NCBI GenBank assembly: GCA_963802255.1
Contig: CAWDHY010000001.1
Span: 28,728-92,727 of the forward strand
Reading direction: 5' to 3'
Length of the DNA stretch: 64,000 nucleotides
Source: Candidatus Magasanikiibacteriota bacterium
Lineage (GTDB): Bacteria > Patescibacteriota > Patescibacteriia > Magasanikbacterales > GWA2-37-8
Shown here: piece by piece, positions 1,928 through 57,649 of the stretch
Layout of the letters: every line of letters starts with the position of its first letter
Numbering within the stretch: position 1 is the first letter of the stretch
Notes under the pieces: generated by a model
Told to the model about the DNA's origin: nothing
What the model saw: only the letters and a program-made list of their open reading frames with translations
Databases searched by the model: none
Program-made: the position numbers and the translations under genes

Positions 1928-2800
1928 ATGTCAATCGAAAGACCAACACCACAGGATGTCGTGAGTCCCGAATCTCGCGAAAGTGAGGAGTCAAAATACG
2001 CTCTTGATTCTAATCAAGAATTTTTGGGCTTCCAAAACGTGGAGGTAACAAAAACAGACGATACAAAGCCATGGAAACCAGCTCTCGAAGTAAAAGTAAC
2101 AAAAACCGATGGTTCAGTTGCTGAAAATCTTGACGCTAACACGCCATTTTTCACATTTCGTGATTCAGAAGGAAACGAAATGACGGTCACTGCGGCCGCA
2201 GCTGGACACATTGATCAGTTGCACATCAAAGGTGAAGACGCCGGCAGTAAGTTTGATTATTCATCACTTGAAGCATTGTTTAAGGATGTTGCCCAAAAAT
2301 TACCACAGGAAGTTGCCAGTGCGCCGGGCGTGTCTGACTTTGCTGTAGACATGGGACGGCACATGGGAAAGGAAGGAATCGCAAGCATGGCAGAATTAAA
2401 AACAGAAGGTATTTTAAGCGAAGCAGACTTGAGTACTGCTGAATCTGTTCGTGCGGAAGTACAGGAGCTTAACAAGTCCGGTGACGAAGCTGCAAAAAAA
2501 GCATTTGCAGAAAAATTCAAAGCAGATAATCCTGACTGCAAAGTACAGTTTCAGCTTGTCCGCGGAACCGTGCTCGTTCCAACCGTAGATACGCCAAAAC
2601 GAGACACTACTAAATTATTCATGGTATTTGGCCCTGGTGCAGATGTAAAGAAAACTGCATATACAATGGCACCAGGTAGACATATGCCACGACACCCAAA
2701 TCCAGGCCAACATAAAAATCAAGAAGGTATACTTAATGAGGAAACCTTTAAAGAATCAGCTGACGCATGGTTTGACACGGTAATGTTGACCGGAAAATAA
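1928..2800 (+). CDS. Hypothetical acidic protein (no recognisable domain), TIR-flanked cargo ORF
   Basis: 290-aa ORF. GC looks higher than its neighbours by eye. Flanked by inverted repeats and followed by a perfect 14-bp stem terminator. Confidence 0.55.
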   Translation: MSIERPTPQDVVSPESRESEESKYALDSNQEFLGFQNVEVTKTDDTKPWKPALEVKVTKTDGSVAENLDANTPFFTFRDSEGNEMTVTAAAAGHIDQLHIKGEDAGSKFDYSSLEALFKDVAQKLPQEVASAPGVSDFAVDMGRHMGKEGIASMAELKTEGILSEADLSTAESVRAEVQELNKSGDEAAKKAFAEKFKADNPDCKVQFQLVRGTVLVPTVDTPKRDTTKLFMVFGPGADVKKTAYTMAPGRHMPRHPNPGQHKNQEGILNEETFKESADAWFDTVMLTGK

Positions 2801-2807
2801 AAAGGAA

Positions 2808-2856
2808 TTGACGGGACGCAATTCACCCCTTTTGTTTCCCTCTTGCGTCCCGTCAA
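2808..2856 (+). terminator. Hairpin terminator
   Basis: TTGACGGGACGCAA-21 nt loop-TTGCGTCCCGTCAA, a perfect 14-bp stem. Confidence 0.6.
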
Positions 2857-2865
2857 TATGGATAA

Positions 2866-2921
2866 ATCAAATTTTATTTATTTTGGTGAAGCGACCCTAA
2901 CGGGTTAAAAGAAAAAGTATA
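2866..2921. repeat. Right terminal inverted repeat (reverse complement of 1814..1870)
   Basis: atcaaattttatttattttggtgaagcg-accctaacgggtt-aaaagaaaaagtata. Further imperfect similarity extends to about 2990, including the 18-bp palindrome GGGCTTTTATAAAAGCCC at 2949..2966. Confidence 0.8.
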
Positions 2922-3054
2922 CATCATATAACAGCGTGCATGCGGTTCGGGCTTTTATAAAAGCCCTCTCCCATATTTGCTACACAAACATCAGGTGCAA
3001 TATTACTCGGCAGGCATTAAACTTAATATATAATTCATCAAATATTTTCTTAAT

Positions 3055-3600
3055 ATGGATCCACTAAAGATAATTCGAAAGTATTATCAAGTTGATTCAA
3101 AGTCTTATCAATTTTTAGTAGAACATGGCAAAGCAGTTACTAAGAAAGCTATCAAAATTGCAGAAAAAAATCCTCATCTTCATCCTGACGTGAAATTCAT
3201 AGAAGAAGCATCCATGTTACATGATATTGGAATGTTCTTAACTAATAATCCTGGAATTGGATGTTTTGGTAAAAAACCATACATCTGTCATGGATATTTA
3301 GGTAAAGAACTTTTAGAAAAAGAGAGCTTACCAAAACACGCATTAGTTTGCGAAAGACATGTTGGGGTGGGAATTTCAATCAAAGACATTGAGGAACTAA
3401 AATTACCAATACCTAAAAGAGATATGATTCCAATTTCGATAGAAGAACAAATTATTTGCTTTGCTGATAAGTTTTTTTCAAAATATGAAGGCGGTTTATC
3501 TAAAGAAAATAGCCTTGATAAGATTAGAACTGGATTATTAAAATTTGGTAATGACAAAATAAAAATATTTGATGAATGGATGATAAAATTTAAATGTTAA
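3055..3600 (+). CDS. HD-domain phosphohydrolase
   Basis: H...HD motif in SMLHDIGMF, with downstream conserved His and Asp. 181 aa. Confidence 0.75.
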   Translation: MDPLKIIRKYYQVDSKSYQFLVEHGKAVTKKAIKIAEKNPHLHPDVKFIEEASMLHDIGMFLTNNPGIGCFGKKPYICHGYLGKELLEKESLPKHALVCERHVGVGISIKDIEELKLPIPKRDMIPISIEEQIICFADKFFSKYEGGLSKENSLDKIRTGLLKFGNDKIKIFDEWMIKFKC

Positions 3601-3743
3601 TGCCTACCTGCGTAATACAACACCTAACACGGCATACACGGCTACGGTTTGCTCCGCAAACCTTCGCCCATATTGCACGGGTGTAGCCTGTCGGCTATTA
3701 TACACCCACGCAACATCGTATACGCCGAAACGTTATACGAAAT

Positions 3744-20677: not shown

Positions 20678-20706
20678 ATTTTATCGTAAAAATAGCGAAT
20701 TGTCAA
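20678..20706 (-). promoter_or_regulatory. Sigma70-type promoter for rpoBC (minus strand), TTGACA-17-TAAAAT
   Basis: Reverse complement of 20678..20706 is ttgacaattcgctatttttacgataaaat. The implied rpoB leader is about 245 nt. Confidence 0.55.
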
Positions 20707-20714
20707 CTTTGAAC

Positions 20715-20923
20715 GGTGGATAATTGTTTGTCAAGAATACCCACTTTTTCTGCTAATATTAGCCAAATATTAAAATATTCCAAAAAAGTTATCCACAGCT
20801 AGTCCACTGAAACACCCCTAGATACTCAATAACTTCTCCACCGAGACTATATTCATCTTGTTATCAGCGCACGTTGAAATTACGGCCAAACTAACATTTT
20901 TCTTCAAGAAATAATTATCCACA
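20715..20923. promoter_or_regulatory. Cluster of DnaA-box 9-mers in the rpoB-ftsK spacer
   Basis: TTATCCACA at 20789..20797 and 20915..20923, both perfect. TTATCCACC (reverse complement) at 20715..20723. Confidence 0.55.
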
Positions 20924-20924
20924 A

Positions 20925-20953
20925 TTGACATTGTCCGGATTCACTTCTAAAAT
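20925..20953 (+). promoter_or_regulatory. Sigma70-type promoter towards ftsK, TTGACA-17-TAAAAT, with its -35 abutting a DnaA box
   Basis: ttatccacaaTTGACAttgtccggattcacttcTAAAAT. The implied leader is about 270 nt. A stem plus U-run at 21139..21170 lies about 60 nt before the ftsK ATG. Confidence 0.5.
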
Positions 20954-42682: not shown

Positions 42683-42741
42683 AACGCCGTAACGGTATTT
42701 GGCGCGATTCTTTTCCGCCGAAACCGCTACGGCGTTTTTTT
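42683..42741 (+). terminator. Intrinsic terminator closing the GC-rich island
   Basis: AACGCCGTA ... TACGGCGTT-TTTTTT (9-bp stem). Confidence 0.6.
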
Positions 42742-45712
42742 ATCCGCGTTTCCAAATACCGGAGGCAAAAGATATTATTTTTCTTGCGGCACCAATTATT
42801 ACACTCTTTTTTGCACGCCCAAAAAAACCAAGCAAGAGGGCGGTTAACCCGCCGGCTGTAGCGGTAAAATATTTTTCCGCCACTTCTTTTGAATTGTTTT
42901 GCGTCACAATCAATTCATTTTTTATAGTCTCCTCTGATAAACCAGTTACTATAATATCCGAATTACCGCGTGGCCAAACCTGAATTTCATTTCCGGACAA
43001 TTCAACTATTCCGGTTATTTCGACTTTTTCTCCTTCAGCAAATGCATTTTTATCAATGGCCGCTCCTTTTTTAAAATACACTTTTATTTCTCCGGCGCCA
43101 TTGTCTAAATACATATAACTACTTTTAATTTCTGTAATTTCACCGCTAAAATTTACCAGCGACCCGGCATGTTCTTCGTTTATTTCGTCCAGCTCAAGAA
43201 TGTTTGCCTTAATTTGCTTATTAGTTTCTAAGATATCGACCGCCTGCTGATTTTTCATTTTTACTCTTTTGATACCGCTTGCTTCTGAAATAATACCTGA
43301 TATCTCTACGGAGTCACCAAGCGCTAATCCGGGAAAATCTTTGTTATACTGATAAATTTGTATTCCGCTTATATTGTCATATATATAGAAAATTTGGCTG
43401 CCAAAAGTTGCCGGTAAGGCAACGACAATGCCACGAATAATAACACCTGCATCGGCGTTTTCTTGCCGCGCTTCCTGAATTGACAGCGGACGATAATATA
43501 CTGCCGTTGAATTATTTGTACTTTTTTTTGCAGCCAATACTCCAATAGCCGAAATATCCGGTAAAAATATATTTTCTTTTCCGGGCGAGGGTGATTCAAC
43601 CCAGCGCCACTCATCAGCAAACGCATAACTCATGCCCTCAACGCTTTTACCATACTTCACCAAATCCACCACACTGTTGTCGCGGTTAATTAGCTCGACA
43701 CGACCGCCAGTGTTATCTAGAACTAATCCCGTAGCTGCACGAAAAAATACCAGCTGTGACTGAGGATTAATAATTGTATTATCCGGCAGAACAAAATCCT
43801 TATCTTTTACTCTTAGCGCCCAGCCAGATAAATTTACAGAAATTTCAGATACATTGCATAATTCAATAAATTCTTTTGTATCAACACCGGGCGGATTGGG
43901 GAAAATTTCACATACCACGATTCCGGTCTCTCCAAGCGCCAACCCTGAGCCAACCGTAATACTGATTTCTTTCTGCCCAAAACTGCCAAGCGTGCTTGAA
44001 GCAGAAACTATAACAATGTAAGTTCCTGAAGAAGCGAAAGAATGCGCCAATTCTCCGCCTTCAGCCACATTGCCATCGCCAAAATCCCATCTAAACGATA
44101 ACATACCGCCCCGTTCGTCAGCAGAATCATCAGCGTTAAACACAACCATCTCCCCGATTTCAGCTGTCGAAGGCGCAATGATTTTCCAGACAATTCCAGA
44201 ATCGGCCATACTGAAAACATTTTCCTGTCCCGGCGTAGGTTGTGCCGTCCACACAAATGTGCCTGATGCAGTCCTGGCGAAACTTTCCGCTTCCGGAGCA
44301 CTATCATATGCAATTTTATCAATTACTTCTCCTGCCGGTGAAATTAACACGGCTTCTTCTTTGCTTGTATTGTTGAACGAAATATTTGTCGCCGAGCGTA
44401 ACCAATACACTATGCTCTGAGCCGGGAGCATGCCGGACAAGGAATAAGTTTTCACCGCATCGCCAATTTTCCAACCATTTAAATCCACCGGTTCATCCTC
44501 TAAATTTTTTATTTCAATAAATTCATCAGAAGTGTCAGACCCGGCCGGATTAGGAAATATTTCATTTATTACTACCCGGGCGGAGAAAGTTGAACTGGTA
44601 GCTATTGAAGTCGTCGCTGTTATAATTTGCTCTGTTACAGTATCTTGGGCGCTTCCATTCCCCCCGCTGGATACTGGCGGCGGGGCAGTAATCATATTTG
44701 CCGCACCCGGTGTAAGACTGGTGGTAATCACCCAGTCGCTGTCACTATCTGTGTCTAACCCATCAACCCGCCTCGCTAATGATTGCCCTTTCTTAGCCGA
44801 CAAATCGGAAGAATAATCAATTCTATCGACGATCTGCCCATCCGGATTTTTTAAAATCACACTATCTCCGCTATTATTTAAAAAACTGGAAGTCAAAAGA
44901 TCCAAATACATCCAGCCGACTGCAGAAATATAACCCGCTACCGGTTTGCACCCGGTTTCTCTGGAGTCGCAAACTACACCACCGTCCATATCAAGCGAAC
45001 TGGTTCCAGGATTAAAAAGTTCGACCCACTCACTTCCCGTTTGCGGGTCAGAAACAAATTCATTTATCCTAATCATCCCCCACAACGTCGTCGTAGATAT
45101 AACCGGAGTTGTTGTAGGGGTCGGTGTTGTCGTCGGTGTTGGAGTTGTTGTCGGCGAGATAACGCCGCTTGAAGTGGCAAAGACACTATTTATTTGCCCG
45201 ATTGTGTTGCCCGTTACATGCTCTCTCCAATTTGTATTATCATAAATAGCTTCGTACGGATTAACACGCTCCAATGAAAAACTTGGCGCGGCAATATAGC
45301 TAAATTGTTCAACAAAATTTCCATCCGCATCTTTCAGTCCTATTTCCTCCCCACTTTCACTTAAACTACCCCATGATGAATCAAAAATTGACCCTGAAAA
45401 AGCTGGATAATCCACAGAAAAAAGATCACTGTTCTGGCAAATTGCCGCATACTCTCCCGGATCAATCATGCTATCTGTGCTACTTACTGTTAAGCCATGA
45501 TTCGTGCTATCTTCCCAAAATTTCCATGCTCCTAAATCTACCGGGTCAGAACCCTTATTCCATATTTCAATCCATTCATGGCCGCTGGCTTCATACGCGC
45601 CAATTTCATTTATTATAATATCGCTATTCGCCGAAAATGCGACTGCCGCACAAACAAAAAAACCGACAATAGCCAGCGCCGATGCCGGAAAAAATTCCCT
45701 CCTCATAAGCAA
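42740..45712 (-). CDS. Large secreted surface protein with four lamin-tail domains (LTD), a PKD domain and a Thr/Pro linker
   Basis: Signal peptide. LTD repeats (INEI...EWIEIWNKG..., RINEFVSDPQTGSEWVELFNPG..., VINEIFPNPAGSDTSDEFIEIKN..., VVCEIFPNPPGVDTKEFIELCN...). PKD (FRWDFGDGN). TTPTPTTTPTPTTTP linker. C-terminal hydrophobic tail. Confidence 0.8.
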   Translation of the reverse strand: MLMRREFFPASALAIVGFFVCAAVAFSANSDIIINEIGAYEASGHEWIEIWNKGSDPVDLGAWKFWEDSTNHGLTVSSTDSMIDPGEYAAICQNSDLFSVDYPAFSGSIFDSSWGSLSESGEEIGLKDADGNFVEQFSYIAAPSFSLERVNPYEAIYDNTNWREHVTGNTIGQINSVFATSSGVISPTTTPTPTTTPTPTTTPVISTTTLWGMIRINEFVSDPQTGSEWVELFNPGTSSLDMDGGVVCDSRETGCKPVAGYISAVGWMYLDLLTSSFLNNSGDSVILKNPDGQIVDRIDYSSDLSAKKGQSLARRVDGLDTDSDSDWVITTSLTPGAANMITAPPPVSSGGNGSAQDTVTEQIITATTSIATSSTFSARVVINEIFPNPAGSDTSDEFIEIKNLEDEPVDLNGWKIGDAVKTYSLSGMLPAQSIVYWLRSATNISFNNTSKEEAVLISPAGEVIDKIAYDSAPEAESFARTASGTFVWTAQPTPGQENVFSMADSGIVWKIIAPSTAEIGEMVVFNADDSADERGGMLSFRWDFGDGNVAEGGELAHSFASSGTYIVIVSASSTLGSFGQKEISITVGSGLALGETGIVVCEIFPNPPGVDTKEFIELCNVSEISVNLSGWALRVKDKDFVLPDNTIINPQSQLVFFRAATGLVLDNTGGRVELINRDNSVVDLVKYGKSVEGMSYAFADEWRWVESPSPGKENIFLPDISAIGVLAAKKSTNNSTAVYYRPLSIQEARQENADAGVIIRGIVVALPATFGSQIFYIYDNISGIQIYQYNKDFPGLALGDSVEISGIISEASGIKRVKMKNQQAVDILETNKQIKANILELDEINEEHAGSLVNFSGEITEIKSSYMYLDNGAGEIKVYFKKGAAIDKNAFAEGEKVEITGIVELSGNEIQVWPRGNSDIIVTGLSEETIKNELIVTQNNSKEVAEKYFTATAGGLTALLLGFFGRAKKSVIIGAARKIISFASGIWKRG

Positions 45713-45713
45713 A

Positions 45714-46832
45714 TTATTGAAAATGTAAAACCACTATTTCCGGACGGTTGCCGGTACGGATAGTCGGTCCCCATGTCCCAACCCCGCTAGTAGTATAAAT
45801 TGAAAAATCACCATCAACTGACAACCCATAGTCATAACCTCTAAAAATCATCTTAGTAATATAGCCGAAAGGAAATATCTGGCCCTTGTGAGTATGACCT
45901 GACAGTTGGAGGTCTATTCCTGTCTCTTTTATTTTATCAACTTGCACAGGACTGTGATAAAGCAGAACGGCCGGCTTATCCAAATCAAGATCTTTTTGCT
46001 CATTAATAATTTTTACCAGGTCGCGACTCTCAAAACGATCAGAATAATTTAAACCGACAATTTGCAGCCCTTCCAGACTCACCGTTTCATCAGATAAAAA
46101 ACGGACCTTCGTTTCGTCGAGTATTTGCTTTGCCCTGCCAACACCAAAATATGTCTCATGATTTCCGGTAATAAAAAATGTTCCAAACTGCGCAGTTATT
46201 TTATCTAGTGGCTTCACATGAAGATTCAGCTGGCCGTCCATCCCGTCAAATAAATCCCCTGTAATAAAGACAGCCTCGGGCTTTTCATAATTAATTTTAT
46301 CAACTATCTTGTCTAAAAAGTTTTGATTAAATACGTGTCCGAGATGAACATCTGAAATATGTATAGCCGTCTTATTTTTCCAAAAATCAGGCAAGTTTTT
46401 TATAGAAATATTGACATGGCGGACTACCGGATTAAATGCGGACCACACACCCCATAATGTGAAAATAAGCGCCGCCACAACAGATAATAGACCAATAATC
46501 GCTAAATTGGGCTGAAAACCGGCTGAATTAAGCAATGCTGAGGCTACCCATCCGAGAAGCAAGGCCATAATCAGATTGACTAATAACCCCAGCCATAGGC
46601 CGGAGGTAAAATAAATCGCTCTTGTGACCATATTCTCCTTCCAGTGAGCAAGAATGGAAGCGATGATGAAACTAACAGCCAAAATAGAAATCAGAATGGC
46701 CATTGCCATATTTACGTCCGGATTGATGATCTTAAAAAAATGGCCTAATGAGTAATAAACAAAAAAATGACTGGCGAACACTATGCTAATAGTCGCTAAA
46801 ACGATAAAAATAATTGATATAACATAACTCAT
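45714..46832 (-). CDS. Membrane-anchored calcineurin-like metallophosphoesterase
   Basis: Six N-terminal TM helices. GDLFDG and GNHE motifs. Forms an operon with the LTD protein (1-bp gap). Confidence 0.8.
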   Translation of the reverse strand: MSYVISIIFIVLATISIVFASHFFVYYSLGHFFKIINPDVNMAMAILISILAVSFIIASILAHWKENMVTRAIYFTSGLWLGLLVNLIMALLLGWVASALLNSAGFQPNLAIIGLLSVVAALIFTLWGVWSAFNPVVRHVNISIKNLPDFWKNKTAIHISDVHLGHVFNQNFLDKIVDKINYEKPEAVFITGDLFDGMDGQLNLHVKPLDKITAQFGTFFITGNHETYFGVGRAKQILDETKVRFLSDETVSLEGLQIVGLNYSDRFESRDLVKIINEQKDLDLDKPAVLLYHSPVQVDKIKETGIDLQLSGHTHKGQIFPFGYITKMIFRGYDYGLSVDGDFSIYTTSGVGTWGPTIRTGNRPEIVVLHFQ

Positions 46833-46960
46833 ACGGAGTATAGTTTAGCTCAAATTCATTTTTCGGGCAAGTATCATGGATAAGAACCATACTCTCTCAT
46901 CTGTATAGATATATATTATATATTTTATGAATGTCACTTAATTATGAAATTTGTGTACGC

Positions 46961-46972
46961 TTGTGTACACAA
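46961..46972. promoter_or_regulatory. 12-bp perfect palindrome TTGTGTACACAA, preceded by a direct repeat of TTGTGTAC
   Basis: Seen directly. A DnaA box TTATCCACA (reverse complement) follows at 46987..46995. Confidence 0.5.
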
Positions 46973-47061
46973 AAGTGCATATCTCTGTGGATAACTCATC
47001 ATATATGTGGACAGCAAACGCTAAAACAGTCACTTATTTCTCTATAATTAGCGTTTTTTCA

Positions 47062-47085
47062 GTTTGTATACACTAGTGTATACAA
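47062..47085. promoter_or_regulatory. 24-bp perfect palindrome TTTGTATACACTAGTGTATACAAA (candidate operator)
   Basis: Perfect dyad, seen directly. Sits about 70 bp upstream of the consensus promoter. Confidence 0.55.
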
Positions 47086-47151
47086 AAATTTTGCAAAAAT
47101 TCATCACTTTTTGGCTAACTATAAAGAAAATACGGCATAAATCGTCCCACC

Positions 47152-47180
47152 TTGACAAGAACGCAAAATTGTGATATAAT
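47152..47180 (+). promoter_or_regulatory. Consensus sigma70 promoter TTGACA-17-TATAAT with a TG extended -10
   Basis: cTTGACAagaacgcaaaattgTGaTATAATat. Confidence 0.65.
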
Positions 47181-47187
47181 ATATTGG

Positions 47188-47520
47188 TAGTCTGATAAGT
47201 AACCGTCGTTCCTTTGCACAATCCACTACTGATTCCAAACTGCAAAAATACAAGCCGAAATACCACGATCAAAAATAATTGAAATCTTGGCATTCCGACT
47301 TCAACCAGGGTATCTCCGATATTGGCTTATTGTGTCGTATATCGACCAGTAAGTATGGAGTTCTACCCCCAAGCGGTTGGGATCATCATTCTACGGCGTA
47401 ATGCCGACATTCCCCGAAAGGGGAAAGAAAGCTTGCACGTAGACAAAAAAAGGGCCGAGGCCTTAAAACAACATTGTTATACGGGCACATCGGCCTTTTA
47501 TATTTATAAAAGTTAACCGG
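47188..47520 (+). ncRNA. Candidate roughly 330-nt structured non-coding transcript (family unidentified)
   Basis: Downstream of the perfect promoter. No credible ORF. Several GNRA-capped hairpins (CCCCgaaaGGGG, CCCAAgcggTTGGG). A second promoter follows at 47526..47554. Confidence 0.3.
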
Positions 47521-47525
47521 TTCAC

Positions 47526-47554
47526 TTGACCAGATAGCGAAAAATTTGTATAAT
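47526..47554 (+). promoter_or_regulatory. Sigma70 promoter TTGACC-17-TATAAT for the dksA-like gene
   Basis: TTGACCagatagcgaaaaatttgTATAAT. Confidence 0.55.
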
Positions 47555-47598
47555 AATTACATAGAACATTTTTGCAAGAGGCGCAAAAAAATAATCAT

Positions 47599-47988
47599 AT
47601 GACAAAGAAATTGGATTTTTCAAAGGAATTCTTGAGCCAGATATCAGGGCAGCTTGAGGAACAAAAAGCCAAGCTTGAAGGCGAGCTAGGCAAATTTACA
47701 AAAAAGAGCCAGCATGTAGCTGATGATTTTGATACTCAATTTCCAAAATACGGAGACAAGGAAGATGAAAATGCGGCCGAGGTTGCCGAATATATCAACA
47801 ACCTTCCTATTGAAGAGGGTCTGGAAAAAACATTACGGGACATAAATAAAGCACTTGAGCGCATCGGAAAAGGAACTTATGGCGTATGCAAATATTGCGG
47901 TAAGCCAATTGAAGAGAAACGCCTGATAGCGCGACCGACATCAAGTGCCTGTGTTGAGTGTAAAAAAACTATTACTCAAGAATTGTAA
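47599..47988 (+). CDS. DksA/TraR-family C4 zinc-finger protein
   Basis: CKYCGKPI...CVEC C4 finger. N-terminal coiled coil. Confidence 0.75.
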   Translation: MTKKLDFSKEFLSQISGQLEEQKAKLEGELGKFTKKSQHVADDFDTQFPKYGDKEDENAAEVAEYINNLPIEEGLEKTLRDINKALERIGKGTYGVCKYCGKPIEEKRLIARPTSSACVECKKTITQEL

Positions 47989-53759: not shown

Positions 53760-54884
53760 CTATTGCCTGATTGGCATAACTATATATAAATAATTTTCGT
53801 CATTTTTTCCCACCAACACACACGGGCTGTCGCCGTTGATTATTTTTAAAGTACCCTCTTCGCCGGTAATACTGTTTAATCCATCCAATAAATATCTGTG
53901 ATTTAAAAGTATTGCATTTTTTTCTCCCTTGATGTTCGCCTCCATGCCGGACCGATATTCACCTGTCTGGTTTGATGTTGATGCAATTTTTATTTCTCCT
54001 TCAGCCTGTAATATATCAAACGCAACCGCATTCACTCCCACTGTAGTAAACAAACTCGCCGCCTTAATTTCCTTTACCATTTTCGCGATTGAGAACTCTG
54101 CTGTCGTCTTAAAATCTTTCGGAATAATTTGTGTATAATCCGGATATTGCCCCTCAACCAAACGCGATATCATCTGTACGCTGTTGTAATTAACAGCAAT
54201 TTGATTTTCGCTTAAAATGACACGCACGCTTTTTTCCGGCTCCAGTTCGCTCGTTGAGGAAAGTATGTGCGCTATTTCCTGTGATGTTCTACCCGGGACG
54301 ATAACTCTGAAAGATTCCTTTCCTTGCAATAATTTAATTTTTTTCTCCGCCAAGCGATAACTGTCGGTCGCTGCCATTACCAATTGGCCGCTGTCTTCCT
54401 GATTAAAAGCAAATAGAACCCCGGAGAGTTCAGGGCGAATATCATTACGCGCGGCTGCGAGGTTTACTTGTGATAAACCCCTTTTCATATCCTCAACCGG
54501 CACCAAAAACCCTTGGCCCTCTCCAACCGCCGGAATTACTGGGTATTCATCAGCTGGTATGCCCTTAATTTTTGTTGATGATTTTCCGCAGGACAAAACA
54601 AGCTCATTATTGCTTAATTCAATATCAATTTTTTCATCTGCCAGTAAATTAATAAAATCTGTCAGTGTCCTTGCCGGAACTGTGAAAGAGCCGGGTTGTT
54701 CAATTTTCGCTCTTACAGAAACAATAATGGCTAATTCCAGATTAGTCGATATAATTTCAACCTTTTGTTCATCGGCCTTTATTAAAACATTACTCAATAT
54801 TGGCAAATTTACGCTTTTTGTAGCCAAATTTGTTACCAGCGAGAGGGCGGCTGCCAAATTTTCTTTTATGCAAGTAATCTTCAT
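53760..54884 (-). CDS. dnaN: DNA polymerase III beta sliding clamp
   Basis: 374 aa with three-domain clamp organisation. Sits downstream of dnaA. Confidence 0.9.
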   Translation of the reverse strand: MKITCIKENLAAALSLVTNLATKSVNLPILSNVLIKADEQKVEIISTNLELAIIVSVRAKIEQPGSFTVPARTLTDFINLLADEKIDIELSNNELVLSCGKSSTKIKGIPADEYPVIPAVGEGQGFLVPVEDMKRGLSQVNLAAARNDIRPELSGVLFAFNQEDSGQLVMAATDSYRLAEKKIKLLQGKESFRVIVPGRTSQEIAHILSSTSELEPEKSVRVILSENQIAVNYNSVQMISRLVEGQYPDYTQIIPKDFKTTAEFSIAKMVKEIKAASLFTTVGVNAVAFDILQAEGEIKIASTSNQTGEYRSGMEANIKGEKNAILLNHRYLLDGLNSITGEEGTLKIINGDSPCVLVGKNDENYLYIVMPIRQ

Positions 54885-55145
54885 ATCTTATTAATTGGTA
54901 TTATTTTATATATTTATATAATAGTAATAATAAGGGGTGTTAATAGTGGGGATAATTGAATTTTTTAGCTTGTTTAAAAGGATTTTATACTAGTAGTATG
55001 TGTACAGTCATGAAATCGTCGAGGGACAGATGGTGAGGATAAATAGCAGGTGTTATCTGTTTTGTGTGTAGCAACCGGGTTAGGGGGATAAGGTTTAAAA
55101 GTTAGGCACCAATTTTAGAGGTTTATCCACACAATATAAACAAAA
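54885..55145. other. Candidate oriC (dnaA-dnaN spacer)
   Basis: Perfect TTATCCACA at 55123..55131. Variants (reverse complement) at 54946, 55034 and 55084. AT-rich run at 54901..54934 as a possible unwinding element (DUE). Confidence 0.55.
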
Positions 55146-56585
55146 TTAGACATTATTTATATACAAACGCTGTTTTATTAATTCTATCTCTTGCTTTAGT
55201 TTAGGACTATTTTCAACATCGCGGCGTATTTTTTCATAAGCATGCATTGCAGTTGTGTGGTCGCGCCCGCCAAGTTCGCCGCCAATTGTCGGGTAAGACA
55301 TTTTTATTTCCTCTCTCATAAGGAACATAATAATTTGCCGCGGGTAGGAAACGCGTTTCTCTCGGCTTTTATTGGAAATATTATCCGAGGGTATGCTATA
55401 GAATTGGCACACAGTCTCGATAATCTGGCGCGGGGACAGCGATTGCTTCATTGAAGCCGTTTCGATTGAACATAGCAAAGATTTTACCGACTCAACCGAT
55501 GGTATCAGATTTTTTAGTTGGTGGTAGGCAATAATTTTATTTAATGAGCCCTCGAGCTCGCGGATGTTAGACTGAACGGAGGCGGCGATTGTATGCAAAA
55601 TCTTTTCTTGCAAGTCAAAATTCTTTTCAGAACATTTCTTTTGTAAAATAGCGACCCGGGTCTCAAAGTCAGGCATTGTGATATCAGCGATCATCCCCCA
55701 CTCAAAACGCGATTTCAATCTGTCTTCTAATGTTGGTATTGCTTTTGGTGGCCGGTCGGAGGTTAATATAATTTGTTTGTTTTGTTGGTGGAGTTCGTTG
55801 AAGGTATGGAAAAAAGATTCTTGAGTTCTGTCTTTGCCGGCGATAAACTGGATGTCGTCTATTAATAGTAAATCGATATTGCGGTAATGGTTTTGGAACT
55901 CTTTGGCAGATCCTTCTTTGACCGACTGAATAAAGTCATTCGAAAATTTTTCCGCGCTGACATATAGAACCGCAGCGTTGGGATTATTTTTTAATATTTG
56001 CGTACCGATAGCCTGGATTAAATGGGTCTTGCCAAGACCGACGCCACCATAAATAAACAAAGGGTTATAGGCATCACCCGGCCGTTCGGAAACGGCTTTG
56101 GCCGCAGCGTAGGCTAACTCCGAACCGCTGCCAACTACAAAGTTTTCAAAAGAATATTTTGGGTTTAAAGCAAAACCACCGTTTTGCGTAGCCGGTTTTG
56201 TTTGTGACCGTACTGCATCCGATGGGTCGTTTTCTCTGGCATAGGTATTCGCGTAGTTTTCAAGCTCGTTGGCGGCCTGCTCCACTAAATTTTTTATATT
56301 ATCAATTTTGTACTCAAGACGTCTTACCGGCTTTCCCATGATGCGTTCCATGGACTTGATTATCATATGGTGATATTTTTTTTCAAACCACGCGCGAGCA
56401 AAGGTGTTCGGCACACACAACAGAACCTGTCCTTCTTGGACCGAAACAATGCCGGTATTTTTAAACCAGGTAATAAAATTGGCTTTTGAAATTGATAATT
56501 CCAGTTCGGCAAGCACTGCCTGCCATATTTCGTTATTGTTCATAATTATTAGCACCGTAGTTTTTAATTTATTGAATTTTATCAC
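55146..56585 (-). CDS. dnaA: Chromosomal replication initiator DnaA
   Basis: AAA+ Walker A GGVGLGKTHL. C-terminal HTH. 479 aa. An extra DnaA box lies upstream at 56635..56643. Confidence 0.97.
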   Translation of the reverse strand: MIKFNKLKTTVLIIMNNNEIWQAVLAELELSISKANFITWFKNTGIVSVQEGQVLLCVPNTFARAWFEKKYHHMIIKSMERIMGKPVRRLEYKIDNIKNLVEQAANELENYANTYARENDPSDAVRSQTKPATQNGGFALNPKYSFENFVVGSGSELAYAAAKAVSERPGDAYNPLFIYGGVGLGKTHLIQAIGTQILKNNPNAAVLYVSAEKFSNDFIQSVKEGSAKEFQNHYRNIDLLLIDDIQFIAGKDRTQESFFHTFNELHQQNKQIILTSDRPPKAIPTLEDRLKSRFEWGMIADITMPDFETRVAILQKKCSEKNFDLQEKILHTIAASVQSNIRELEGSLNKIIAYHQLKNLIPSVESVKSLLCSIETASMKQSLSPRQIIETVCQFYSIPSDNISNKSREKRVSYPRQIIMFLMREEIKMSYPTIGGELGGRDHTTAMHAYEKIRRDVENSPKLKQEIELIKQRLYINNV

Positions 56586-56723: not shown

Positions 56724-56900
56724 ATGCCAAAAAGAACGTATCAGCCAAACAAGCGAAAACGAGCAAAAAGCCACGGTTTTAGGAAAAGAATGGCGACAAA
56801 GGGGGGTCGCAATGTCTTAAGCCGCAGGCGCGCTAAAGGCAGAAAGAAGCTCACTGTCTCAAGCGAACGCAAGGGGAAGCGTACGCGAAAAACCAGATAA
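56724..56900 (+). CDS. rpmH: 50S ribosomal protein L34
   Basis: [45 protein letters not shown]. Has a C-terminal extension. Confidence 0.85.
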
Positions 56901-56947: not shown

Positions 56948-56974
56948 AAAACCCGCTAAAATAGCGGGTTTTTT
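56948..56974. terminator. Bidirectional terminator between rpmH and yidD
   Basis: AAAACCCGCT-aaaat-AGCGGGTTTTTT. Confidence 0.7.
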
Positions 56975-56982
56975 GTTGTCTT

Positions 56983-57256: not shown

Positions 57257-57649
57257 TTATTTCAGGGTTTTTGCTTTGCTCAGTAATTCTATCGCCTGTT
57301 TCTCAATTTCTTCATATGTTTTGTCCAAACATCCGGACTTGGCGATAAACAATAAATAATAACCATTATTAATTTTAGAGCCTTTAATCAGCAGGCGTAT
57401 TGATTCTCTCAGTTGCCGGCGAAAACGGTTTCGCTTTATCGCGCTCTTGGATATTTTTAACCCCACAGCGAAAGCGACGCGGAGCTGTGTTTCAAATTTT
57501 TCCGGGTTTTCTTTTGGCGGGAAATGTTGTTTTGCCTTTGATAGCTGGAGTGCTTTTAATGATAAAAAAGAACCGTTGATAAAATAGCCGTGTTTAATCA
57601 GCAGATTAAAATCTCTTGTTTTTGCCAAACGATTTTCGGGCTGTAACAT
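57257..57649 (-). CDS. rnpA: RNase P protein component
   Basis: 130-aa basic protein with KRNRFRRQLRE. Followed by yidD. Confidence 0.8.
   Translation of the reverse strand: MLQPENRLAKTRDFNLLIKHGYFINGSFLSLKALQLSKAKQHFPPKENPEKFETQLRVAFAVGLKISKSAIKRNRFRRQLRESIRLLIKGSKINNGYYLLFIAKSGCLDKTYEEIEKQAIELLSKAKTLK

Follow-up and report, generated by a model that had tools for sequence, protein, structure and literature searches.

A 766-bp spacer (46833-47598) in contig CAWDHY010000001.1, of which a 64,000-nucleotide stretch (the window) was analyzed, holds a real, conserved, noncoding structured RNA at about 47187-47500 on the + strand. The spacer is flanked by a Metallophos-family gene (45714-46832, - strand) and by a gene for a DksA/TraR zinc-finger protein (47599-47988, + strand). 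Together with its upstream sequence, the RNA constitutes a new structured-RNA family with an unusual conserved control region linked to DnaA, where DnaA boxes lie between two copies of a 24-bp dyad. Taken as a whole, the locus is probably best explained as a stand-alone gene for an uncatalogued structured noncoding RNA (ncRNA) of ∼314 nucleotides (nt) at 47187-47500 on the + strand. Searches with nhmmer and a covariance model revealed 17 distinct homologues of 309 to 392 nt, which are 54 to 85% identical to the window copy and, as far as sampled, all come from Magasanikbacteria-like Patescibacteria, members of the candidate phyla radiation (CPR). The nearest genome contigs are likewise metagenome-assembled genomes of this group.

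A noncoding RNA gene with its own promoter and terminator

The RNA gene is delimited by the following features:

47152-47180, + strand: RNA-gene promoter, TTGACA, 17-nt spacer and TG-extended TATAAT, with a 12/12 consensus match
47187-47500, + strand: structured ncRNA of ∼314 nt, with ends deduced from the -10 element (5′) and the U-run (3′)

The promoter is the sole perfect sigma-70 consensus of the 64-kb window (chance expectation, 0.08 and 0.01), and TTGACA and TGnTATAAT-like elements are kept in all homologues. At the other end, every homologue terminates in a G+C-rich stem followed by 4 to 7 U's. An own promoter combined with an own intrinsic terminator, both conserved across species, is the arrangement of a stand-alone bacterial ncRNA gene. 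The segment from 47187 to 47505 (319 nt) folds with -97.1 kcal/mol, compared to -70.8 ± 4.7 kcal/mol for shuffled sequences (z = -5.6; none of 100 shuffles as good), and the G+C content of the RNA is 0.44 versus 0.27 to 0.33 in the flanks. Compensatory changes support a conserved secondary structure, again typical of an ncRNA gene, and the family members have no open reading frame (ORF) in common with respect to position, frame, or start codon. The + strand is fixed by invariant U-G pairs in P1 and P5 (helices described below) as well as by the orientation of promoter and terminator. An initial annotation of this DNA, made without database searches, had proposed a perfect promoter driving a structured transcript of ∼330 nt without an ORF; this is borne out with a slightly shorter transcript. 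All elements which that annotation listed are present, at positions within one base of those given there.

Distribution and gene neighborhood

Homologues were collected by three routes. Loci fetched via the upstream Metallophos protein and searched with nhmmer contain the RNA in 5 of 80 cases, exactly those five retaining the adjacent dksA-like gene; in the 75 loci without dksA synteny, neither nhmmer nor the covariance model detects the RNA. An RNA-only pattern (GACTTC...CGTAYATCG...GGTTGGRAT) run over metagenome contigs gave seven matches. Five are true homologues, all with a dksA-like gene directly downstream, and the remaining two hit a secretion-gene region by chance; viral contigs scanned with this pattern gave none. 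The third route, through contigs encoding DksA homologues of 64 to 83% identity, added eight more distinct members, which are more diverged. The core covariance model finds no further copy in 96 sources totaling 775 kb, the whole window included.

In all 17 loci, the RNA lies directly upstream of dksA and shares its strand, and its 3′ neighborhood is a dksA-lspA-comM block; in the window, the dksA-like gene is followed by lspA and then by a gene for a ComM/YifB-type Mg-chelatase-like protein. The 5′ neighbor varies and can be a Metallophos gene, an LTD surface protein gene, a PemK toxin cassette, a cold-shock gene, a methyltransferase gene, or the gene for EF-G.

One relative labeled as Parcubacteria, L098, contains an IS110-family transposase gene (DEDD_Tnp_IS110; 2690-3664 of that locus) between dksA and lspA, which breaks the otherwise constant adjacency of these two genes. 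In the same locus, the RNA module neighbors a cold-shock gene, upstream of which a subthreshold Rfam match to the cspA thermoregulator is located (589-933, - strand; 39.8 bits versus a gathering threshold of 78; E = 5e-07). L098 (1750-1915) and a further locus, L003 (2300-2695), show 250 to 400 nt of extra sequence between the RNA terminator and the dksA promoter, which in L098 includes G+C-rich hairpins.

Secondary structure of the RNA

The fold comprises a 5′ hairpin, a three-way junction, and two 3′ hairpins, all on the + strand:

47187-47229, + strand: P0, 5′ hairpin of the minimum-free-energy fold, with sequence and length varying among homologues
47231-47243, + strand: P1 5′ strand, GAUUCCAA-A-CUGC, which pairs with 47373-47384 and closes the three-way junction
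47251-47302, + strand: P2, long irregular hairpin with an A-rich loop and an invariant ACUUC in its 3′ strand
47309-47367, + strand: P3, GGUA-CUCC ... GGAG-UACC stem with an upper stem capped by CG-UAUAU-CG, supported by covariation
47373-47384, + strand: P1 3′ strand, GCGG-UUGGGAUC, supported by the alignment and the covariance model
47390-47443, + strand: P4, irregular hairpin UCUACG...CGUAGA with the cap CCCC-GAAA-GGGG (47412-47423), from RNAalifold and the alignments
47449-47499, + strand: P5, extended terminator hairpin with outer stem AAAGGGCCGA/UCGGCCUUUU and inner stem GCCU/GGGC, followed by the U-run

The core of the RNA is the three-way junction in which P1 closes P2 and P3, with the invariant junction nucleotides ACUGC, ACUUC, GG-A-C--C, and GCGGU. 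Across the family, 8 of the 12 pairs of P1 show double changes, and the outer part of this helix is swapped wholesale between lineages (UUCC/GGGA, CCGC/GCGG, ACUA/UGGU, and CCCC/GGGG). P2 comprises helices 3 to 6 of the model. The three helices making up P3 (helices 7 to 9) are 100%, 100%, and 86% paired, with double changes at 13 of 20 pairs. P4 and P5 show little covariation among close members because the sequence is conserved there; distant homologues differ from these in P4/P5 sequence and retain the same two-hairpin architecture. The loop of P5 is conserved and A/U rich.

RNAalifold applied to six sequences shows compensatory changes at 18 of 70 pairs. In a covariance-model alignment of 15 members, 90.9% of the cells are paired, compared to 33 to 45% when the partners are slid by one to three columns, and 32 of 46 pairs carry changes on both sides; none of 500 shuffles reaches the observed values. 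Since such an alignment is fitted to its model, the count was repeated on a plain MAFFT alignment of the ten closer members, with 88% of cells paired versus 28 to 45% and 20 of 46 pairs double changed, again with none of 500 shuffles reaching these values. A first RNAalifold model, in which the segment S2 (CAUUCCGACU) was paired with GGUUGGGAU, was replaced after sequences had been added; S1 now pairs with S3 to form P1, and S2 lies within P2.

The 5′ strand of P1, S1 (GAUUCCAAACUGC; 47231-47243), resembles S2 (CAUUCCGACUUC; 47289-47300), and either can pair with S3 (GCGGUUGGGAUC; 47373-47384). This redundancy holds in most homologues. Covariation favors S1:S3, with S2 used in P2, and in L098 S1:S3 is calculated at -17.1 kcal/mol versus -7.0 kcal/mol for S2:S3. 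The RNA may switch its conformation between the two pairings.

Comparison with known RNA families

Rfam 15 at the gathering threshold identifies five tRNAs in the whole window and nothing in the RNA. A permissive scan (E ≤ 10) of 46800-47650 gives only junk matches far below threshold, and one (E ≤ 1) of nine homologous loci gives nothing in the RNA region. ARAGORN likewise finds 5 tRNAs in the window and no transfer-messenger RNA (tmRNA). These results agree with the initial annotation, which had seen no signature of tmRNA, RNase P RNA, or signal recognition particle (SRP) RNA and had suggested an Rfam search as a check; no match to a housekeeping RNA, to 6S RNA, or to any other family emerges, permissive scans included. 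Regarding RNase P RNA, tmRNA, and SRP RNA, no family model matches, the 5′ and 3′ ends are unpaired, and P4-type conserved strands are absent.

That annotation had also raised the possibility of a 6S-like RNA, for which no positive evidence was obtained. The 6S covariance model (RF00013) and those of related 6S-like families match neither the window region nor the nine homologous loci, and the single helix of ∼180 nt with a large central bubble typical of 6S RNA is absent, the fold being P0, the P1/P2/P3 junction, P4, and P5. As the RNA departs from 6S RNA on every testable point, any similarity to it would be functional and not familial. The new RNA resembles 6S RNA and Ms1 in being a presumably abundant small RNA with a strong sigma-70 promoter, and its genomic link to a factor of the type that binds RNA polymerase (RNAP) makes RNAP a conceivable partner. 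It differs from them in its length (∼314 nt, ∼130 nt longer than the ∼180 nt of 6S RNA), in its junction and hairpins in place of one long helix with a bubble, and in the absence of an Rfam match. A 6S-like role is neither supported nor excluded.

Comparative genomics has brought to light several orphan structured bacterial ncRNAs, among them the raiA motif RNA, OLE, ROOL, GOLLD, and HEARO. As these classes are generally known, they share with the new RNA a stand-alone promoter-to-terminator organization, a length of a few hundred nucleotides, multihelix junctions with invariant nucleotides, covariation, and restriction to certain lineages. The raiA motif RNA is further comparable in its recurrent nonoperonic gene neighbor, raiA there and dksA here. 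The new RNA is set apart from these classes by the lack of an Rfam 15 match, by its occurrence in the phylum Patescibacteria, and by its upstream DnaA boxes and dyads. No description of such an RNA, of a lineage-specific ncRNA, or of 6S RNA in CPR bacteria was found in the literature.

Upstream control region

The sequence between the Metallophos gene and the RNA promoter contains the following elements, which are without strand unless stated otherwise:

46950-46973: distal dyad copy, degenerate, TTTGTGTACGCTTGTGTACACAAA, matching 19 of 22 specified consensus positions
46974-46982: weaker box-like 9-mer AGTGCATAT, flanking the DnaA box
46986-46994, - strand: DnaA box, perfect 9-mer, reading TTATCCACA on the - strand and TGTGGATAA on the + strand
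47007-47015: weaker box-like 9-mer TGTGGACAG, on the other flank of the DnaA box
47020-47052: degenerate GCTAA...TTAGC motif, with a T-run at 47054-47059; a compact palindrome in relatives
47063-47086: proximal perfect 24-bp dyad TTTGTATACACTAGTGTATACAAA, 12+12 nt, 100% complementary
47108-47119: conserved TTTTTGGCTAA block, situated past the proximal dyad and ahead of the -35 element, a column block in the 150-nt upstream alignment

The proximal dyad is composed of two TGTATACA palindromes 12 bp apart. In every homologue whose available sequence covers it, the dyad takes the near-invariant form TTTGTATACAC-nn-GTGTATACAAA and keeps a fixed distance to the RNA 5′ end (-116 to -131). A second copy lies 100 to 190 bp upstream of the proximal one; relative to the RNA 5′ end, it is at -207 to -313 in the 14 loci whose upstream sequence is long enough, and it is present in locus L104 too. 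In the window, TTGTGTACgcTTGTGTACACAA (46951-46972) with its 12-bp palindrome TTGTGTACACAA (46961-46972), noted initially as an element of its own, forms part of this degenerate distal dyad. Exact matches to the dyad pattern are confined to RNA-bearing loci (13 of 101). The window holds only two dyad copies, both in the RNA spacer, and the dyad was accordingly rejected as a general motif. To our knowledge, it is unlike parS, LexA, NrdR, CIRCE, CRP, or dif sites, and the literature contained nothing specific on it.

Seven perfect DnaA boxes occur in the window, so that a single box alone is not significant; its conservation at every homologous locus is. A perfect TGTGGATAA in the same orientation is found in each of the 14 loci tested, with 1 to 6 boxes per locus, and also in L104. 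The density of boxes is 10.1 per kb, compared to 0.32 per kb in 609 kb of unrelated loci, an enrichment of ∼30-fold. The array directly follows the distal dyad, most of its boxes share one orientation with a frequent spacing of 12 or 20 nt, and the two dyad copies bracket it in every homologue. The clustering and conservation of sites with the consensus 9-mer TTATCCACA are those of a DnaA-box cluster. In the window, the box is situated one base to the left of 46987-46995, where it had been placed before. With its closely spaced consensus boxes of one orientation (12 or 20 nt apart) in an intergenic position near but not at the origin, the array resembles datA and DARS of Escherichia coli, the DnaA-box clusters of Bacillus subtilis, and DnaA-regulated promoters. 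Unlike these, the putative DnaA sites described here are bracketed by two 24-bp dyads and fused to a structured-RNA gene. Nothing relevant on DnaA boxes in Patescibacteria was found in the literature.

In relatives, a GCTAAnnTTAGC palindrome immediately precedes the proximal dyad at the corresponding position and recurs in the interval from that dyad to the -35 element. The window counterpart bears on a stem with a T-run at 47044-47060 reported in the initial annotation: the sequence is present and includes the TTAGC half (47048-47052) of the degenerate GCTAA...TTAGC motif, whereas a function as a terminator is not credible; there is no gene on that strand to terminate, and the palindrome is conserved in relatives. 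The dyads and DnaA boxes are assigned to the RNA gene, since exact dyads occur only in RNA-bearing loci and the dksA loci without the RNA have neither element. What had been described as a regulatory hub of palindromes and a DnaA box thus consists of conserved parts of the control region of this gene.

A further DnaA-box cluster is located in the rpoB-ftsK spacer of the window (20700-20930), with boxes at 20715 (-), 20789 (+), and 20915 (+). It adjoins the sole exact GCTAATATTAGC palindrome of the window (20752-20763), a motif recurring in the RNA control region of relatives.

Relation to the dksA-like gene

Two features define the downstream end of the spacer and the invariant 3′ neighbor of the RNA:

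47526-47554, + strand: separate promoter of the dksA-like gene, TTGACC-17-TATAAT, with an 11/12 match
47599-47988, + strand: DksA/TraR C4 zinc-finger gene, 129 amino acids (aa), identified by Pfam PF01258 (E = 5.9e-09) and synteny

The promoter corresponds to the second good promoter predicted initially for this gene, and its position after the RNA terminator is conserved in relatives. Loci L082 and L095, whose DksA proteins are 74 to 75% identical, have a 140-nt spacer without the RNA; they retain a dksA promoter (TTGACT-17-TATAAT) and are devoid of dyads and DnaA boxes. As the RNA comes with a promoter and a terminator of its own, and dksA is served by a separate promoter that relatives without the RNA also keep, the RNA is regarded as a stand-alone gene and not as a leader. 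In this reading, an independent gene has been inserted in front of the dksA promoter. Among the loci, 72 to 418 nt separate the terminator from the dksA ATG.

The proposed role as a riboregulator acting in cis on the DksA-like factor is disfavored by this conserved promoter past the terminator, which persists where the RNA is missing, and by the lack of conserved pairing between the RNA and the dksA mRNA. Antisense pairing with the dksA translation-initiation region, in trans or in cis, was rejected, as a 17-nt complementarity in the window (47209-47225 with 47612-47628) is not conserved; duplexes between the RNA and the dksA initiation region are no better than those with shuffled targets in 14 loci (z = -1.4 to +1.8).

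Position relative to the replication origin

The genes dnaA (55146-56585), dnaN (53760-54884), rpmH, and rnpA lie 6 to 10 kb to the right of the RNA locus. On the - strand, the spacer between dnaA and dnaN (54885-55145) contains several DnaA boxes, TTATCCCCA, a CCCC cluster, the run TTA TTA TTA CTA TTA, and an AT-rich stretch of ∼50 nt by the dnaN start. We take this layout of boxes, GC cluster, DnaA trios, and unwinding element to be that of a Bacillus-type origin. With these canonical parts in place there, the chromosomal origin is most likely in the dnaA-dnaN spacer, ∼8 kb away from the RNA, and the RNA locus was rejected as the replication origin in favor of that spacer. No trio run and no distinct AT-rich unwinding element, as expected for an oriC, is found beside the DnaA boxes of the RNA module, and in locus L102 neither dnaA nor dnaN is within 10 kb of the module. 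Gene orientation confounds the GC skew over the 64 kb and makes it uninformative.

Alternative explanations

Several points weigh against the interpretation as a stand-alone gene. The 17 loci were reached largely through synteny, and the covariance model was run over 775 kb of fetched loci only, so that any copy at another place in these genomes, or in a different lineage, would escape the search. Both RNA ends and the abundance of the transcript are deduced from sequence signals alone. The DnaA boxes precede the start site by ∼200 bp, a large distance for a simple activator or repressor. A cis role via terminator read-through would likewise be compatible with the unbroken adjacency to dksA; the U-run comprises only 4 U's in the window genome, and distant members possess, ahead of the terminator, a segment (CUCGCCUU/CUCGUCUU) that could pair with the 5′ strand of the terminator in the manner of an antiterminator. 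These last observations, together with the complementarity of S1 and S2 to one and the same 3′ strand, a hint at alternative pairing, are the basis for viewing the RNA as a cis-acting, riboswitch-like leader or attenuator of a dksA-lspA-comM operon, whose junction would sense a ligand or protein and set the read-through at P5. Like riboswitch and attenuator leaders, the RNA combines a conserved junction-centered fold with a following intrinsic terminator upstream of a same-strand gene. In such leaders, no promoter separates the element from the gene, whereas here the conserved sigma-70 promoter at 47526-47554 intervenes and is the sole one in relatives without the RNA. The variable spacing to the ATG, the absence of an evident antiterminator in the ten close members, the preference for S1:S3 calculated for L098, and the lack of a match to riboswitch or T-box models further speak against a leader, which is considered unlikely. 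That the conserved sequence codes for a small protein is hardly credible: the window holds TTG-start ORFs of 40 and 64 aa inside the region, but locus L002 has no ORF of at least 25 aa, no ribosome-binding site is present, the conserved blocks contain single-base indels, and the substitutions are paired compensatory changes.

A housekeeping RNA of known type that has diverged too far for the Rfam models, or a functional analogue of one, chiefly of the RNAP-sequestering 6S/Ms1 type, with RNase P RNA also considered, would fit the length of 309 to 392 nt, the consensus promoter, the own terminator, and the linkage to an RNAP-binding-type factor; moreover, rnpA (57257-57649) implies that an RNase P RNA is encoded somewhere in the genome. 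This explanation is quite improbable given the fruitless permissive scans with the 6S, Ms1, RNase P, SRP, and tmRNA models, a fold with neither a rod with a central bubble nor P4-type strands nor terminal pairing, and a family that is narrow as sampled and missing at the locus in close relatives. The locus could instead be chiefly a DNA element of replication control, either titrating or reactivating DnaA in the way of datA and DARS or serving as an auxiliary origin; the dyad-box-dyad array would then be what matters, and the strong transcription unit next to it would mainly modulate DNA topology or DnaA occupancy. The enriched DnaA-box array with its conserved position and orientation, the two invariant dyads bracketing it, the distance of 8 to 10 kb to dnaA-dnaN in the window genome and in locus L103, and the usual divergence of genes from the module are consistent with this idea. 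The strong structural selection on the RNA would be unexpected for a by-product transcript, and the missing unwinding element and trio run, the canonical origin arrangement at 54885-55145, and the situation in L102 likewise render a replication element improbable.

Proposed mechanism and significance

As a stand-alone gene, the RNA would be transcribed from its own extended -10 consensus promoter and end at its own hairpin-plus-U-run terminator, with the upstream region of two 24-bp dyads and bracketed DnaA boxes controlling its transcription. The chances appear even that RNA synthesis is coupled through this region to DnaA, and hence to replication status, and to a dyad-binding protein. The RNA itself would act in trans, binding a protein or ligand through the invariant junction. 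The best single guess at its target, and a doubtful one, is the transcription machinery, because of the fixed linkage of the RNA to a factor of the RNAP secondary-channel type (DksA/YlyA type). Its more specific form is rather unlikely: a CPR-specific regulator of the transcription machinery, analogous to 6S RNA and Ms1 with an unrelated fold, which would partner the DksA/YlyA-like factor and be wired to DnaA via the dyad-box-dyad region. If true, the DnaA-wired RNA and the DksA-like factor would directly couple replication to transcription in bacteria with minimal genomes.

The Patescibacteria make up a large share of bacterial diversity and have tiny genomes with few recognized regulators. 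The strong structural selection, the only perfect promoter of the window, and the near-invariant operator array suggest that the RNA likely does something central. It provides structural and biochemical studies with a defined new class of RNA and is a candidate for the first example of a DnaA-controlled structured RNA, while the conserved 24-bp operator provides a route to its binding protein. Should the link to the DksA-like factor be functional, the RNA would bear on RNAP regulation in CPR organisms.

Other features of the window

The genes rpmH (+ strand, ∼56727-56860) and rnpA (- strand, 57257-57649) are convergent and do not form the usual rpmH-rnpA operon. The gap between them shows a terminator-like hairpin at ∼56950-56976 and ∼280 nt of comparatively G+C-rich sequence, in which no gene is called and Rfam gives no match. 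On the other side of the RNA locus, 42740-45712 encodes a surface-type protein of 990 aa that contains one PKD and four Lamin-tail domains and matches an OB-fold weakly. This protein recurs beside the RNA locus in several relatives.

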